Positions 1,742-64,000 are shown, counted from the stretch's first letter. The stretch is DNA of 64,000 bases from an uncultured Gammaproteobacteria bacterium (GCA_964452565.1 CAYVLY010000003.1:22555-86554); one strand, 5' to 3'. Notes: generated by a model not told the origin, from the sequence alone. Numbers and translations: made by a program.

Positions 1742-1770
1742 TTGACAAAGCTGGTTTCTTGTTTTACTTT
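1742..1770 (+). promoter_or_regulatory. Sigma70-like promoter TTGACA-17-TACTTT upstream of the GC-rich ORF
   Basis: TTGACA at 1742-1747, a 17-nt spacer, then TACTTT at 1765-1770. An AGGAGA RBS lies 6 nt before the ATG at 1828. Confidence 0.4.
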
Positions 1771-1827
1771 AGGGACTGTTGCAAAACACTGTACCTTTAG
1801 ATGCCCGAAAAGGGCAGGAGACAAGAC

Positions 1828-2985
1828 ATGCCTCTCGAAAGACTTCACGCGACTCTGATCATCACCGGCGCTCCCATGGACAAGGTCCCAGCCGACCTGA
1901 TGGCACCGGTGGTACGCAGCGGTGACGTACTCGCGCAGATCGGGGTCGGTGTATATGTCGACGTCAATGCCGCGCAGGGCGATCATGGCTCGGTGGTTAT
2001 GCATGGTGTGGGTGGAAGCAGAGTGACGTACAGAGACATCTTTGCGGCTCAGCGCGCAGACCGGCATATGCGTTCCTACTATGCGGGCGTGTATCAGCAG
2101 GTTCTGCTCGCCTGTATGATGTGCCGCAACGCGCTCCAGCAGACCTGGTTCGTGGAAAGTACAGATGCCGGGCGTATCAGGGAGTACACCGCACTTATCA
2201 CTTCAGCGATCGAGGAGCTGGAGGGCAGGAGGCAGGGTTTCCTTGAGTCGGCTCAGGAGATCCTGGAGTGTGCTGCAAGCCTTGACGATGTGCTCGGACG
2301 GTTCAATCCGTTCAGCCGCGCGGCTATGCTCTGCGCTATCATGCGTCGGCTGGAGGGCTATGCGAACTTCCGCTCCGAGATCATCGGTGAGGTGGGTCTG
2401 CGTGATCAGGCTCTCTACATGGAGCTTGAGCGCACCATGGCTATTCTTTACTGGGTGACCATGGAGCTGACCGAGATGTCACGGTGGTGGCGCGACAGTC
2501 GCTGGGTCAAGGACGACAACCATGCTCGACGGCTAGCCAAGCGCATGGGTGTGTGCGTTGAGATGCTCCAGCAGATCGTAGTCAAGCCTTTCCGGGCCTT
2601 GGCGTACAGAACCAGGCAGGACGTGGAGATGGTGGGTGGTTTGATCGAACACCCCTCTGCCCGCGACGCCGAGGCGGCCAACTTCCTGGACCGCGCCCTA
2701 CGCGCTTTGCAGCTGCCCCAGATGCATTGCCAGATCCACGAGATCATCGCGGCTGTGTCGCTGGCTGATCGTTGGGGTTCGCGTTTTGAGGAGCACGAGA
2801 TTGTGGCTGCCCTGCGCGTGCTGCGGCCTGTACATGACCAGCTCGGACGTCTTGATGACCGCGATTTCCAGACCAGGATCGTGGATCTGATGCACATGAA
2901 TCTCGGTTTGGCCATGACGGAATTCCAAGGTAGCTGCCGGCTCAAGCCGGTCAAGCGTTTGCTCCTCGATGCTGTCGCAAGCTAG
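1828..2985 (+). CDS. Hypothetical protein in GC-rich cassette G1 (ORF track start 1801; RBS-supported start 1828)
   Basis: Long ORF in a segment that is visibly about 60% GC against an about 40% backbone. Only shadow ORFs occur in other frames. It has its own promoter and a downstream 9-bp-stem hairpin. Confidence 0.55.
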   Translation: MPLERLHATLIITGAPMDKVPADLMAPVVRSGDVLAQIGVGVYVDVNAAQGDHGSVVMHGVGGSRVTYRDIFAAQRADRHMRSYYAGVYQQVLLACMMCRNALQQTWFVESTDAGRIREYTALITSAIEELEGRRQGFLESAQEILECAASLDDVLGRFNPFSRAAMLCAIMRRLEGYANFRSEIIGEVGLRDQALYMELERTMAILYWVTMELTEMSRWWRDSRWVKDDNHARRLAKRMGVCVEMLQQIVVKPFRALAYRTRQDVEMVGGLIEHPSARDAEAANFLDRALRALQLPQMHCQIHEIIAAVSLADRWGSRFEEHEIVAALRVLRPVHDQLGRLDDRDFQTRIVDLMHMNLGLAMTEFQGSCRLKPVKRLLLDAVAS

Positions 2986-3013
2986 GCCGCAACTCGACTT
3001 CTGATCGACAATA

Positions 3014-3035
3014 CCCCACGGGCACTCCCGTGGGG
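3014..3035 (+). terminator. Perfect 9-bp stem hairpin ccccacggg-cact-cccgtgggg downstream of G1
   Basis: Inverted repeat read directly from the sequence. It is followed at 3042-3060 by a weak stem and a T6 run. Confidence 0.5.
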
Positions 3036-3064
3036 TTCAAGCCATAAAAATAGGCTTTTTTGTT

Positions 3065-3078
3065 CAAGGTTGAACCTC
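3065..3078. repeat. Solo REP-like palindrome tcaaggttgaacct, a partial copy of the 18-bp RAYT-flanking repeat
   Basis: It matches 14 of 18 nt of the inverted repeats at 28715-28732 and 29436-29453. A second palindrome, gaggtttaacctc, follows immediately. Confidence 0.45.
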
Positions 3079-3100
3079 TGAGGTTTAACCTCCTAATTCT

Positions 3101-61503: not shown

Positions 61504-61570
61504 AGGTGATTAGAGGTTTGGAACTTCGTAACCTCTGATCACCTCTGATCACCTCTATAACCTTTTTACT
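61504..61570 (+). terminator. Terminator-like hairpin aggtgattagaggtt…aacctctgatcacct with a ctgatcacct direct repeat and T-run
   Basis: Read from the sequence; it sits between the M16 peptidase and tpiA. Confidence 0.4.
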
Positions 61571-62344
61571 ATGAAATACGTATTTGCAAATTGGAAAATG
61601 AACCTAGGCATTCGCGAGAGTGTGGCCCTTGCGCGTGGAGTAATGCGAACACTACGAGGTAAGGAAAAGACACCGTCAGTTGTTATATTTCCATCCTTTA
61701 CTGTGCTTAACGAGGTTCGAAAGGTAATGGCGCGATCTAGAATGAGACTTGGTGCGCAAAATTGTGGTACACAGAAAAAGGGCGCATTCACTGGAGAGGT
61801 CTCAACCTCCATGCTTGAAGACATTCAGTGTGAGTATGTTTTGGTAGGTCATTCTGAGCGTCGTCATGTTTTTGGTGAAAGTCTAGAGATTATTAAAGAT
61901 CGTTTTAAGGCCGCAATGGAGTCAAAACTTGTACCTGTTTTGTGTGTGGGTGAGCCATCAGAAGAGCGTAATGTTGGAAATGCAGAGTCTTATGTGTCAG
62001 AGCAGCTTATCAGTGCATTGAAAGGTTTACGCATCCCAAGGCAAAAGCATCTATTTGTTGCTTATGAACCAGTATGGGCCATTGGATCAGATCACGCGGC
62101 GCTTGTTGCAGATATGGTTGAGATGCATGACTTCATCAAAGATACGATCAAAAAGATTGTAGACGTTCCTGAAAGTAAGATTCATATTTTGTATGGAGGA
62201 TCAGTTGATTCTCAAAACGCATATGTGTTTTTACGTGAGGAATTAGTTGATGGGGTGTTGGTTGGGGGTGCAAGCTTGAAAATAAAAGAGTTCCAGGGCA
62301 TAGTAGACGCCGCAACTGATGTCATAACCGCTCAGGAACTATAA
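61571..62344 (+). CDS. tpiA: Triosephosphate isomerase
   Basis: ANWKMN, GAQN, VGHSERR and YEPVWAIG signature motifs. Confidence 0.9.
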   Translation: MKYVFANWKMNLGIRESVALARGVMRTLRGKEKTPSVVIFPSFTVLNEVRKVMARSRMRLGAQNCGTQKKGAFTGEVSTSMLEDIQCEYVLVGHSERRHVFGESLEIIKDRFKAAMESKLVPVLCVGEPSEERNVGNAESYVSEQLISALKGLRIPRQKHLFVAYEPVWAIGSDHAALVADMVEMHDFIKDTIKKIVDVPESKIHILYGGSVDSQNAYVFLREELVDGVLVGGASLKIKEFQGIVDAATDVITAQEL

Positions 62345-62347
62345 TCT

Positions 62348-63142
62348 ATGTTTTGGACGATATTATTTAGCATATTATTTGTAGGAGGCGTTATTGTGAT
62401 TGGATGGCTTGTTTGGCAAAAGTGGACCGACCTGAGAGTTCTAGATCCAGATTCGATCCCAGAGTCTGTGTCAAAGAAAAAGAAACAAGAGTTATTGAGA
62501 AAGCGAATTGAGCGCACAGGACTCAAGTATGCCAAAAAAGCGCAGAAGGGAGTCATACGACCTCTTGGTACTGGAATGCAAGAAGCATTCCGGCGTTTTG
62601 CTGGAAAGCTGACTGCAGCCGAGCGTAGGTATCAGCAAGAAAAGCACAAGCAGGCAGCCGACGAAGGGGACCTGCGTGTTATTGATCAACTTGTCGATGA
62701 GGCACAAAAGTTTATGGATGAGGAGATCTGGGATTTGGCCGAGAAGAAGCTCATTCAAGTTATTGGGCTTGATGCTCGCAACGCAGATGCATACGAGCTT
62801 CTTGGACGCGTATATCTGGCTACAAAGGATTATGAATCAGCTAAGGAGACATTTGTATTTCTGAATAAACTTCATCCAAAAGACGCTAGTGTAATAGCTA
62901 GCTTGGGTGAAGTCGATCTGAAACTCGATAACGTGGATGGTGCGGTTGGGCACTTTGAAAGGGCAGTAGAATTGAGCCCGAAGAATCCCAAATATCTTGA
63001 TCTCTACATTGAAGCGATCATTAAGAGCGGAGACGTTCATATGGCTATGACAGTGTTAGATCGGTTGATAGAGGTAAACCCAGAGAATAAGAAAATACTA
63101 GATTTTGAGAAGAAAATAGAAGAACTTCGGAAAAATAAGTAA
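62348..63142 (+). CDS. Membrane-anchored TPR-repeat protein
   Basis: N-terminal TM followed by TPR-like repeats (NADAYELLGRVYLATKDYESAKETF…). Confidence 0.65.
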   Translation: MFWTILFSILFVGGVIVIGWLVWQKWTDLRVLDPDSIPESVSKKKKQELLRKRIERTGLKYAKKAQKGVIRPLGTGMQEAFRRFAGKLTAAERRYQQEKHKQAADEGDLRVIDQLVDEAQKFMDEEIWDLAEKKLIQVIGLDARNADAYELLGRVYLATKDYESAKETFVFLNKLHPKDASVIASLGEVDLKLDNVDGAVGHFERAVELSPKNPKYLDLYIEAIIKSGDVHMAMTVLDRLIEVNPENKKILDFEKKIEELRKNK

Positions 63143-63160
63143 AAATACTAACATTAGGCA

Positions 63161-63186
63161 AAACCCTTGACTTTTCAAGGGTTTTG
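63161..63186 (+). terminator. Terminator aacccttga-cttt-tcaagggtt plus T-run
   Basis: Perfect 9-bp stem after the TPR gene. Confidence 0.65.
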
Positions 63187-63292
63187 TGTTAATTTTTTAA
63201 GCTTGCGCGGGATCCCCCTGCGTCAAGTGGGCTTTGCCCAAAAGGCCCCTTTACAACGTTTTTGAAGGCAGGAAGCTTTCAATGAAGGGAAC

Positions 63293-64000
63293 ATGATGTT
63301 CAAAAAACTGATCATGGCATTGCCAGTCATGGCAGTGCTTGCATCCGGATGCTACAGCTGGTGGGATATGGAAGGCGTCAAGCTGCTCGATACCAACGAC
63401 ACTGGATCGTCCTACGGTCAGGATGCCGATGGCGATGGCTACGACGATGGCCAGGACTGCGACGACGCCGACGCCGCCATCAACCCCGGCGCCGACGAGT
63501 ACTGCGACGGCATCGACAACGACTGCGACGGTCTGGCCGATGAAGATGATGCCGCCGACGCCACCACCTGGTACGCAGACAGCGACGGTGACGGCTACGG
63601 AAGCATCAGCTACACGCTGAATGCCTGCAACCAGCCCACCGGCTACGTCGAAGACGGCTCCGACTGCGACGATGGCGATGAGTTCATCTACCCCGGTGCC
63701 GACGAGGTCTGCAACGGCTACGACGACGACTGCGACAGCCAGGTCGACGACGACGACAGCAACCTGGTGGACGCCAGCAGCTGGTACGCCGATGCCGACA
63801 ACGACGGCTACGGTGACGAGGACGATGAGGTCCACGCCTGTGAGCCTCCCTCGGGATACATCGACAGCGGTGACGACTGCGACGACTCCAATGGCTTCGT
63901 TAACCCCGACGCCGAGGAGATCTGCGACGAGGTGGACAATGACTGCGACGGCGACGTCGACGAGGGAGTCACCACGACCTACTACGCTGATGTGGATAAC
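63293..64000 (+). CDS. GC-rich lipoprotein with tandem MopE-like putative metal-binding repeats; partial, runs off the 3' window edge (cassette G8)
   Basis: Hand-translated. Signal peptide with lipobox VLASGC. Repeats follow D-x-DGDGY…DCDD…NPGA-E-CDG-DNDCDG. The frame is open to the window end, so the ORF track misses it. Confidence 0.7.
   Translation, partial: MMFKKLIMALPVMAVLASGCYSWWDMEGVKLLDTNDTGSSYGQDADGDGYDDGQDCDDADAAINPGADEYCDGIDNDCDGLADEDDAADATTWYADSDGDGYGSISYTLNACNQPTGYVEDGSDCDDGDEFIYPGADEVCNGYDDDCDSQVDDDDSNLVDASSWYADADNDGYGDEDDEVHACEPPSGYIDSGDDCDDSNGFVNPDAEEICDEVDNDCDGDVDEGVTTTYYADVDN

Follow-up and report, generated by a model that had tools for sequence, protein, structure and literature searches.

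Eight GC-rich, moron-like single-gene units in an AT-rich Candidatus Uhrbacteria chromosome: a putative class of fast-evolving accessory genes with maintained base composition

Introduction

In the concept of Hendrix and Juhala, a phage moron is an independently transcribed gene of deviant guanine-plus-cytosine (GC) content, inserted at a hotspot between two genes that are adjacent elsewhere, and the morons described from Burkholderia phages are GC-poorer than their surroundings (PMC2920897). Here we describe eight GC-rich segments, G1 to G8, in a stretch of 64,000 nucleotides from an uncultured, ultra-small bacterium (GCA_964452565.1, CAYVLY010000003.1:22555-86554; the whole stretch is called the window). 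With moderate confidence, we favour the reading that these are moron-like, autonomous single-gene units belonging to a fast-evolving accessory class, whose GC-richness would be maintained by a force confined to the open reading frame (ORF).

Recent horizontal gene transfer (HGT) is by convention recognised from a deviant base composition and dated by amelioration. Genes that have been acquired usually have a higher AT content than the host genome, towards whose composition they should ameliorate, and the cassettes of integrons do not normally carry a promoter. In bacteria, GC-biased gene conversion at hotspots of recombination has reportedly been described by Lassalle et al. 2015, with effects said to be modest and spread over recombining regions.

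Results

Eight GC-rich segments in an AT-rich chromosome

The whole window is 44.3% GC and its backbone 42.7%. A two-state hidden Markov model (HMM) applied to G/C content across the window called exactly eight GC-rich segments of 57–65% GC (Table 1), the same eight that the original prediction had delimited, with boundaries agreeing within tens of bases. Codon usage, proposed then as a check, sets the island ORFs apart as strong outliers: GC at third codon positions (GC3) is 0.65–0.90 in G1 and G3–G8 (z = +7 to +13.5), compared with 0.39 ± 0.04 and a maximum of 0.50 in 48 backbone ORFs, while G2 is a weaker outlier (GC3 0.59, z = +5.4). Fourfold-degenerate sites are 74% GC in the islands versus 30% in the backbone, the preferred island codons are CTG, CTC, CGC and AAG, as in high-GC bacteria, and the coding strand carries more C than G at fourfold sites (0.46 vs 0.28). 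GC2 stays close to the backbone level, and the resulting order GC3 > GC1 > GC2 indicates that the island ORFs are genuine coding sequence, the G2 ORF being a candidate (GC1/2/3, 0.64/0.45/0.59). The combined fraction of the amino acids G, A, R and P is 0.30 in the islands versus 0.23 in the backbone.

The GC excess is limited to the ORF and terminator of each unit. Among the seven units with a promoter, the GC content of promoter and 5' untranslated region (UTR) is 54% in G7 and 36–48% in the other six; intergenic backbone DNA is 40% GC, and the ribosomal-protein and other core genes of the window are not GC3-rich. Amino-acid content was rejected as the source of the excess, most of which resides in third and fourfold positions. 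Structural RNAs were also rejected as the source of the islands, which show strong codon periodicity; Rfam and ARAGORN searches over the window matched a single tRNA-Lys.

The backbone encodes MreB, CTP synthase, L9, L27, RRF, GlyRS, TIM, glycosyltransferases and dTDP-sugar enzymes. Loci retrieved with MreB (n = 80; MreB identity 66–90%) are mostly labelled Candidatus Uhrbacteria or Patescibacteria, and the window is a chromosomal segment of Candidatus Uhrbacteria (Patescibacteria), neither phage nor plasmid. The flanks of the units (MreB, CTP synthase, ribosomal proteins, GlyRS and TIM) bear out the earlier view that they lie between unrelated housekeeping genes. Related metagenome contigs compared with the window are designated L003 to L101.

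Metagenomic data and abrupt changes of composition at the junctions could also arise if fragments of GC-rich organisms had been joined into an AT-rich contig during assembly or binning, an artefact that we discount almost entirely. Records of the island proteins come from two separate sources, a 90.5-kb NCBI contig and the Logan assemblies of run SRR8146440; in the latter, two contigs match window positions 12557–23083 and 43390–54731 at 100% identity and cross both junctions of G2, G3, G5 and G6; an independent assembler thus reproduces eight junctions. Orthologous AT/GC junctions recur in other samples and studies, and in other species, with conserved sequence running across them, and the 16 junctions are clean, each falling exactly between promoter and terminator, unlike those of chimeras. 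The original statement that the contig is not chimeric therefore stands.

Retained units are syntenic, fast-evolving and persistently GC-rich

The order GT4, G1, 700-aa membrane protein (opposite strand) and CDP-alcohol phosphatidyltransferase is the same in the window, L083 and L088, where the G1 orthologues are 45% and 35% identical to G1 and have 64% GC versus a backbone of 45–46% (L083) and 53% versus 37% (L088). In L084, a G7 orthologue (44% identity; 62% GC in a backbone of ~40%) lies between holB and TrmB as it does in the window. It is followed by the positional equivalent of G6, which is ~30% identical to G6, has a 25-residue core and a ...SAAA C-terminus in common with it and, judged from sequence, is probably its orthologue. 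Flanking backbone orthologues are 63–89% identical. Non-synonymous divergence (dN) is 0.53–0.82 for the island genes versus 0.07–0.25 for their neighbours, so that G1, G6 and G7 evolve 3–6 times faster than the genes beside them; their ratio of non-synonymous to synonymous divergence (dN/dS) of ~0.3–0.55 indicates that the proteins are still constrained.

Distances between the G1 proteins give the same three-taxon topology as four backbone proteins, and the ratio of G1 to backbone distance (~2–4) is, for each reference protein, similar across the three taxon pairs, a proportionality that vertical co-divergence predicts. The retained occupants are vertically inherited. Their non-coding flanks are better conserved than the ORFs enclosed: the first hairpin of the G1 terminator is near-identical in the window, L083 and L088 (and is also an nhmmer match), the G1 5' UTR hairpin beside the Shine–Dalgarno (SD) sequence is kept in both relatives with co-variation of both stem arms, and L084 aligns well with the window over the G7 promoter and the beginning of its transcript, over the RNA that separates G7 from G6 and over the G6 3' UTR.

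Synonymous sites of the backbone are saturated between the species compared (proportion of synonymous differences, pS, 0.68–0.81), and GC3 is 0.59–0.81 in every G1 and G7 orthologue. Under the standard amelioration model, a foreign GC3 exposed to the substitution regime of the backbone would have decayed almost completely over such a distance; given the saturation, the GC excess then cannot be the scar of an unameliorated transfer. Fourfold sites of G1, polarised with L088 as outgroup, show 13 AT>GC versus 2 GC>AT changes in the two ingroup lineages, small counts that the AT-richer outgroup biases but that give no hint of decay.

The same signature recurs among relatives. Across the related loci, 56 ORFs carry it, with a mean offset of +0.17 ± 0.05 over the local backbone, and the GC of these ORFs rises with that of the backbone over the range 0.34–0.62 (r 0.71), although this correlation is partly built into the detection threshold of backbone +0.10. 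The gap between TrmB and holB gives a threshold-free test, exempt from that dependence, and here GC lies above the backbone in 15 of 15 loci (r 0.84; gap length 0.5–6 kb). Islands in relatives of 58–62% GC reach 71–76% GC, and the units stay 12–22 GC points above their own backbone. Each of three species pairs (L022/L033, L010/L026 and L039/L077) has one reciprocal best-hit pair that is GC-rich in both genomes, and these pairs are the most divergent or among the most divergent (27.6–35% identity). When 40 GC-rich ORFs of relatives were compared with Pfam, two matched (one SLT, one MopE). A consensus promoter lies at most 300 nt upstream of 19 of the 56 ORFs, where 0.018 per 300 nt is expected, and GC-rich DNA follows 41% of strong promoters versus 4% of random positions.

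Predicted packaging

G6 apart, the predicted layout of a unit is a near-consensus sigma-70 promoter, then a short AT-rich 5' UTR, an SD sequence, the GC-rich ORF and an intrinsic terminator, the 3' end of G8 falling outside the window. TTGACA-N16-18-TANNNT has six matches in the window, five of which precede G1, G3, G4, G5 and G7. The TTGACA hexamer occurs in intergenic DNA six times in the 64 kb, in each case ahead of an island ORF (G1, G2, G3, G4, G5 and G7). The best-scoring promoters and terminators of generic scans belong to the units, the top hairpins being those of G2, G3 and G5. No TTGACA-type promoter precedes G6, where a long structured leader is found. The uniform cassette packaging first proposed holds for most units and fails for the promoter of G6; G8, for which no promoter had been identified, does have a promoter-like site (Table 1). 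Such packaging is largely what would be expected of any monocistronic gene in the clade. In many relatives, GC-rich ORFs are likewise preceded by a promoter of this consensus. Promoters and terminators are predictions, and with them the units' own transcriptional control.

Slots gain, lose and exchange occupants

The slots that the units occupy are limited in number and lie in intergenic DNA, with conserved operons on either side. At the G5 slot, n43306 and GT2a are 9–44 bp apart in most Uhrbacteria; the slot is filled only in the window, L004 and L006, by unrelated GC-rich ORFs, and the L004 occupant is a lipoprotein on the opposite strand relative to its flanks. Different GC-rich ORFs, for the most part unrelated, are likewise found in the TrmB–holB slot of other Uhrbacteria. 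No GC-rich segment lies upstream of ftsE, the position of G4, in L004 or L006, and in L084 the TPR gene is not followed by G8. The G2 and G3 slots in relatives were reached by protein search and inspection of the matching contigs; a metagenome scan with the PEGA protein towards these slots returned distant domain matches only. G3 has no counterpart in L099, L100, L101 or the contig of protein P0031, where its slot measures 143–313 bp and holds no ORF, and the G2 slot of L101 contains an unrelated 347-aa ORF of 68–71% GC. Slots therefore gain, lose and exchange occupants, a pattern consistent with acquisition; absence from close relatives applies to G3, G4, G5 and G8, and not to G1, G7 and, probably, G6, which have syntenic orthologues. 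Within the S41–PEGA gap that forms the G3 slot, heptamer runs (gtagaat / ctacttt) lie beside promoters in L099 (1834–2146) and L101 (4758–5000); these may be regulator sites or slippage-prone tracts.

The description of the units as horizontally acquired and possibly mobile is accordingly not borne out as a general one: G3, G4, G5 and G8 are lineage-specific, but G1, G7 and probably G6 are syntenic, and mobility genes are missing. No integrase or transposase ORF was found in or beside any island of the window, and no terminal repeats, att-like ends or tRNA targets were found with any unit, the sole tRNA (Lys, 24784) being remote. All G1 and G7 homologues of known context are at the syntenic position. 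The original prediction had proposed looking for the same units at different loci in relatives; a second locus was found for none of them in the related loci, apart from a repeat protein related to G8 in L020, downstream of the L020 TrmB gene, a match that may reflect repeat composition. Nor did a donor emerge, in that 1.84 billion representative proteins contained no homologue outside the G1 and G7 families.

Two direct repeats were noted. One, D9 (66 nt; 52994–53059 and 55871–55936; 83% identity), brackets G6–G7 and contains a hairpin, ccatatttctttg...caaagaaatatgg, in each copy. D9 is missing from every related locus compared, including L084 with its equivalent gene pair, and would thus probably be a small repeat element rather than an att site. 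The other flanks a distant G1 homologue in L089 (70% GC, GC3 0.95, in a GC-rich contig): a ~45-nt direct repeat of a terminator (gatcca..ggatcggggccgtctgtttcgttt), at 100–160 and 1450–1500, which looks like a duplication produced by gene insertion between a terminator and the promoter of the next gene.

Features and products of the units

Table 1. Positions of the eight GC-rich segments and of the features read or predicted from their sequence, numbered from the first nucleotide of the window.
Unit	Feature	Position	Strand	Details
G1	HMM segment	1803-3035		59.9% GC
G1	Promoter, TTGACA-17-TACTTT	1742-1770	+	TTGACA-17-TAnnTT also upstream of L083 and L088 orthologues
G1	5' UTR hairpin (tgccc-gaaaa-gggca), then SD GGAG	1802-1820	+	
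G1	ORF, 385 aa	1828-2985	+	Alternative ATG at 1801; GC 60%, GC3 0.71
G1	Terminator	3014-3062	+	Hairpin ccccacgggcactcccgtgggg, second small hairpin, T run
G2	HMM segment	13689-13951		59.7% GC
G2	Promoter-like site, TTGACA and weak -10	13574-13602	+	
G2	Candidate ORF, 82 aa	13656-13904	+	GTG start 6 nt past GGAGG
G2	Intrinsic terminator	13927-13960	+	Top-ranked in terminator scan
G3	HMM segment	15541-15943		57.1% GC
G3	Promoter, TTGACA-17-TAGCCT	15357-15385	+	
G3	ORF, 132 aa, ~three predicted hydrophobic helices	15443-15841	+	GC3 0.65; singleton cluster
G3	Intrinsic terminator	15877-15910	+	
G4	HMM segment	41239-41567		59.6% GC
G4	Promoter, TTGACA-17-TATTTT with TG extension	41121-41149	+	
G4	ORF, 104 aa, ~three predicted hydrophobic helices	41222-41536	+	GC3 0.76
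G4	Terminator-like hairpin	41549-41572	+	Read from sequence; not listed by terminator scan
G5	HMM segment	44899-45472		63.2% GC
G5	Promoter, TTGACA-17-TATTAT	45587-45615	-	
G5	ORF, 179 aa (206 aa from GTG at 45563)	44943-45482	-	GC3 0.86
G5	Intrinsic terminator	44896-44919	-	Top-ranked in terminator scan
G6	HMM segment	53146-54505		60.4% GC
G6	Structured RNA upstream of G6, ~260 nt	54380-54640	-	Minimum free energy -104 kcal/mol, z -7.2
G6	ORF, 317 aa, acidic (isoelectric point, pI, 5.0)	53390-54343	-	GC3 0.79
G6	3' UTR and terminator	53262-53389	-	Bidirectional hairpin 53265-53293
G7	HMM segment	54809-55708		65.4% GC
G7	Promoter, TTGACA-17-TATATT with TG extension	55764-55792	-	
G7	ORF, 238 aa, basic (pI 9.5)	54896-55612	-	GC3 0.90
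G7	3' UTR	54641-54895	-	Palindromic repeat element 54700-54770; terminator hairpin ~54645-54690
G8	HMM segment	63322-64000		62.6% GC
G8	Promoter-like site, TTGACT-17-TAATTT	63168-63196	+	Overlaps hairpin
G8	ORF	63296-64000	+	Continues beyond window; GC3 0.81

The product classes assigned in the original prediction were upheld: G3, G4 and G5 each have about three predicted hydrophobic helices, G8 is a MopE-repeat lipoprotein (LASGC lipobox; MopE-type repeats, Pfam PF11617, 2e-28), and G1, G6 and G7 are predicted to be soluble and belong to no family in Pfam, PHROGs, PADLOC or NCBIfam. Among all island proteins the G8 MopE repeats were the sole match in these four collections. Scans of IMG/VR with G1, G7 and G8 and tblastn searches of 50,697 phage records with G6 and G7 found no relatives. 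In an exhaustive HMMER search of the 1.84 billion representative proteins, G1 had ~16 homologues and G7 three or four, while G5 and G6 had none besides themselves. The AlphaFold2 model of G1 (mean predicted local distance difference test score, pLDDT, 91) has a small beta domain followed by long helical bundles, and a fold search with it returned generic helical-bundle matches only; the G7 model (pLDDT 77) gave no informative fold match. For the G2 candidate protein no homologue was found in a homologue search, and the G2 transcript, considered as an RNA, folds no better than shuffles (z -1.1). The class thus comprises small membrane proteins, lipoproteins and soluble proteins with few or no detectable homologues.

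Directly 3' of the G4 terminator-like hairpin lies the extended -10 (TGATATAAT) of an ftsE-like gene. On its other side, G4 follows the terminator of a 2278-aa ORF (34162–40998) with three or more tandem copies of a 588–591-nt repeat, whose product is probably a giant surface protein.

Structured RNA and repeat elements

The structured RNA upstream of G6 is ~49% GC, not the GC-rich part of the locus, and ends in its own terminator (54384–54398), after which come the G6 SD and ATG. Searches with nhmmer matched it to L084/L085 (5e-48) and L003 (2e-6). In L084 (8923–9257) it is ~80% conserved, while the G6 protein is barely recognisable; a weaker copy in L003 (8488–8706) stands alone in a 491-bp TrmB–holB gap. 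Pairing in the closing helix is kept through compensatory changes, and no Rfam family matched. The element could be a riboswitch-like leader or a small RNA. The G6 3' UTR and its terminator also have a conserved counterpart in L084 (nhmmer 4e-11). L084 lacks the GC-rich non-coding stretch of ~200 nt (53060–53262) that separates the G6 terminator from the TrmB stop codon in the window. Read on the + strand, this stretch folds more stably than shuffled sequences (z -3.8) and leads into the bidirectional terminator at 53265–53293; it may be a + strand small RNA.

The palindromic element in the G7 3' UTR, gtcatcctgaacgaagtgaaggatc ... gattcttcgctacgctcagaatgac at 54700–54770, has related ...cctgagcgaagtcgaaggg... 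copies at 41010–41040, past the giant gene, and at ~4700–4760, apparently inside the gene of a 702-aa membrane protein, where it coincides with a GC bump; similar palindromic copies occur in intergenic regions of L084. By their sequence these elements are a repeat family resembling repetitive extragenic palindromes or miniature inverted-repeat transposable elements. A low-complexity repeat of GCCTCAGCTGGAGC-like units (24246–24636, GC ~0.50) occupies the interval between an ORF at 23121–24194 and the tRNA-Lys gene at 24784–24859; no ORF of at least 80 aa is listed within it.

Discussion

Synteny, co-divergence and the persistence of high GC3 suggest that the GC excess belongs to a gene class, is confined to the ORF and is kept up actively, being neither the scar of a recent transfer nor the mark of self-mobile elements. 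The G7–RNA–G6 pair may be an exception to the autonomy of the units, with G6 dependent on read-through. New occupants (G3, G4, G5 and G8) would probably have entered when foreign or newly formed ORFs were inserted illegitimately at intergenic sites bearing a promoter or terminator. As for the maintaining force, we would rank GC-biased mutation or repair tied to strong standalone transcription ahead of selection on an mRNA-level property, and that ahead of repeated replacement by alleles from a GC-richer pool. A transcription-linked GC-biased process could account jointly for rate and composition; it would need selection keeping the 5' UTRs AT-rich.

Several points weigh against this reading. 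Demonstrable orthologues exist for G1 and G7 only, and weakly for G6; for G2–G5 and G8 the evidence is presence or absence, which fits ordinary recent HGT equally well. The polarised fourfold counts of G1 are small and biased by the AT-richer outgroup, and the detection threshold contributes to the correlation between island and backbone GC. The related sequences are all metagenome assemblies, and the promoters, terminators and expression of the units are predicted from sequence. That the 5' UTRs are not GC-rich is unpredicted by a purely transcription-coupled process without extra selection, and we know of no mechanism that holds GC3 at 0.7–0.9 in single genes of a genome with GC3 0.39.

An alternative interpretation is that the units are recently acquired, possibly mobile cassettes from GC-rich donors that have not yet ameliorated. 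The absence of G3, G4, G5 and G8 from the closest relatives compared, the 9–44-bp gap at the G5 slot, the unrelated occupants that different species hold in their slots, the terminator repeat beside the L089 homologue that resembles an insertion scar, the 66-nt repeat bracketing G6–G7 and a codon usage like that of high-GC bacteria are all consistent with it. We nevertheless consider it unlikely, in view of the synteny of G1, G7 and probably G6 elsewhere, the co-divergence of G1 with its neighbours, and a GC3 that stays at 0.6–0.9 in every lineage despite saturated synonymous sites in the backbone. Moreover, no fixed donor composition fits islands of 71–76% GC in relatives that are themselves 58–62% GC, G5 and G6 have no homologue among the 1.84 billion representative proteins, relatives in phages, PHROGs, PADLOC and IMG/VR are lacking, as are integrases and transposases, and D9 is absent from L084 despite the same gene pair. 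The genes might instead have remained in place while homologous recombination repeatedly overwrote their coding parts from a GC-richer Patescibacteria pool, with UTRs and terminators as anchors. This would explain low identity and high GC together, and it fits the greater conservation of UTRs, promoters and terminators than of the enclosed ORFs, the end of GC-richness near the ORF ends and the distant G1 homologue in a GC-rich contig (L089, 70% GC). It appears quite improbable, however, given that G1 distances are proportional to those of the backbone with the same topology, the conserved anchors are just 20–130 nt long, no AT-rich allele was seen in GC-rich hosts, and islands exceed the backbone even in the most GC-rich relatives, which would call for an ever-richer pool.

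Selection might also act on the messenger or its use, not on DNA, through a very stable GC-rich mRNA, Rho- or translation-coupled control of C-rich transcripts, or tuning for expression in a GC-rich host cell that would receive nucleic acid from the epibiont. An excess that is limited to ORFs, strongest at third positions and richer in C than G on the coding strand points in this direction, and near-consensus promoters, 5' hairpins by the SD and strong terminators fit abundant, stable transcripts as well as portability. But the amino-acid composition is shifted too, a sign of pressure on every codon position; high GC3 is not seen in ribosomal-protein or other core genes; and strong selection would have to extend over hundreds of synonymous sites in a lineage expected to have weak selection; we regard this explanation as very improbable.

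If the favoured reading of moron-like units under an ORF-confined force is carried further, Uhrbacteria, and perhaps other Patescibacteria, might have a compositional equilibrium peculiar to a gene class, in which such a force raises GC by ~17 points and makes protein evolution 3–6-fold faster on backbones of 35–62% GC; we offer this tentatively. It is similarly possible, though doubtful, that the force acts on strongly promoted, monocistronic, clade-restricted genes and persists through speciation. It could consist in transcription-linked GC-biased mutation or repair, or in selection on the messenger, and in an extreme variant the units would be portable and tuned for expression in the GC-rich host of the epibiont. 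Either would also provide a marker for the genes through which an uncultured phylum interacts with its hosts.

These genes matter for how base composition is read, in that vertically inherited genes keep a GC3 excess of 0.3–0.5 past the saturation of neighbouring synonymous sites in several independent species pairs. If this were true genome-wide, island-prediction tools would mislabel a whole gene class in Patescibacteria, and a local, as yet undescribed force on base composition in bacteria would form an exception to the amelioration model. The signature of promoter, GC-rich ORF and terminator offers a cheap way to pick out fast-evolving envelope proteins and proteins of unknown function, and it is these that would be the prime candidates for interacting with the host in this episymbiotic lineage, itself uncultured. 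It also draws attention to a conserved structured RNA that has no entry in the RNA family library. The literature on Uhrbacteria and Patescibacteria yielded general HGT surveys and no description of the pattern; coverage was incomplete, and this is absence of evidence only.

Among described systems, GC-biased gene conversion resembles the present pattern in its local rise in GC, mostly at third positions, with accelerated substitution. In the units, however, GC3 is shifted by +0.3 to +0.5, the shift stops within tens of bases of the ORF ends, and adjacent core genes show no increase in GC. With boundaries this sharp and neighbours left unaffected, we judge conversion unlikely as a sufficient cause. 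Integron cassettes are likewise compact single-ORF units of deviant composition with an imperfect hairpin at the 3' end, but the units described here are scattered, form no array, carry their own predicted promoters and have no integrase ORF; no attI or attC features were noted at the units, no dedicated attC model search having been made. Closer are genomic islets and hotspots, with lineage-specific, homologue-less ORFs at a few intergenic sites, turnover of occupants and compositional deviation. The units depart from islets in being always GC-richer, with an offset that tracks backbones of ~35–62% GC and persists past synonymous saturation, and in having no identifiable mobility genes, tRNA targets or donors.

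Compared with phage morons, the units sit in a cellular chromosome among housekeeping genes and lack relatives in PHROGs and in phage databases, their GC content exceeds that of the DNA around them whereas Burkholderia morons are GC-poorer (PMC2920897), and several are vertically inherited with a deviant composition kept over saturating divergence. A moron might be looked for in unrelated genomes or positions, but the G1 and G7 homologues of known context are all syntenic. The likeness to morons nevertheless extends over much of their organisation: a single extra gene stands between genes that are adjacent in relatives (the G3, G4, G5 and G8 slots), it has its own predicted promoter and terminator and a GC content of 57–65% versus 42.7%, and the same hotspot holds different occupants in different genomes.

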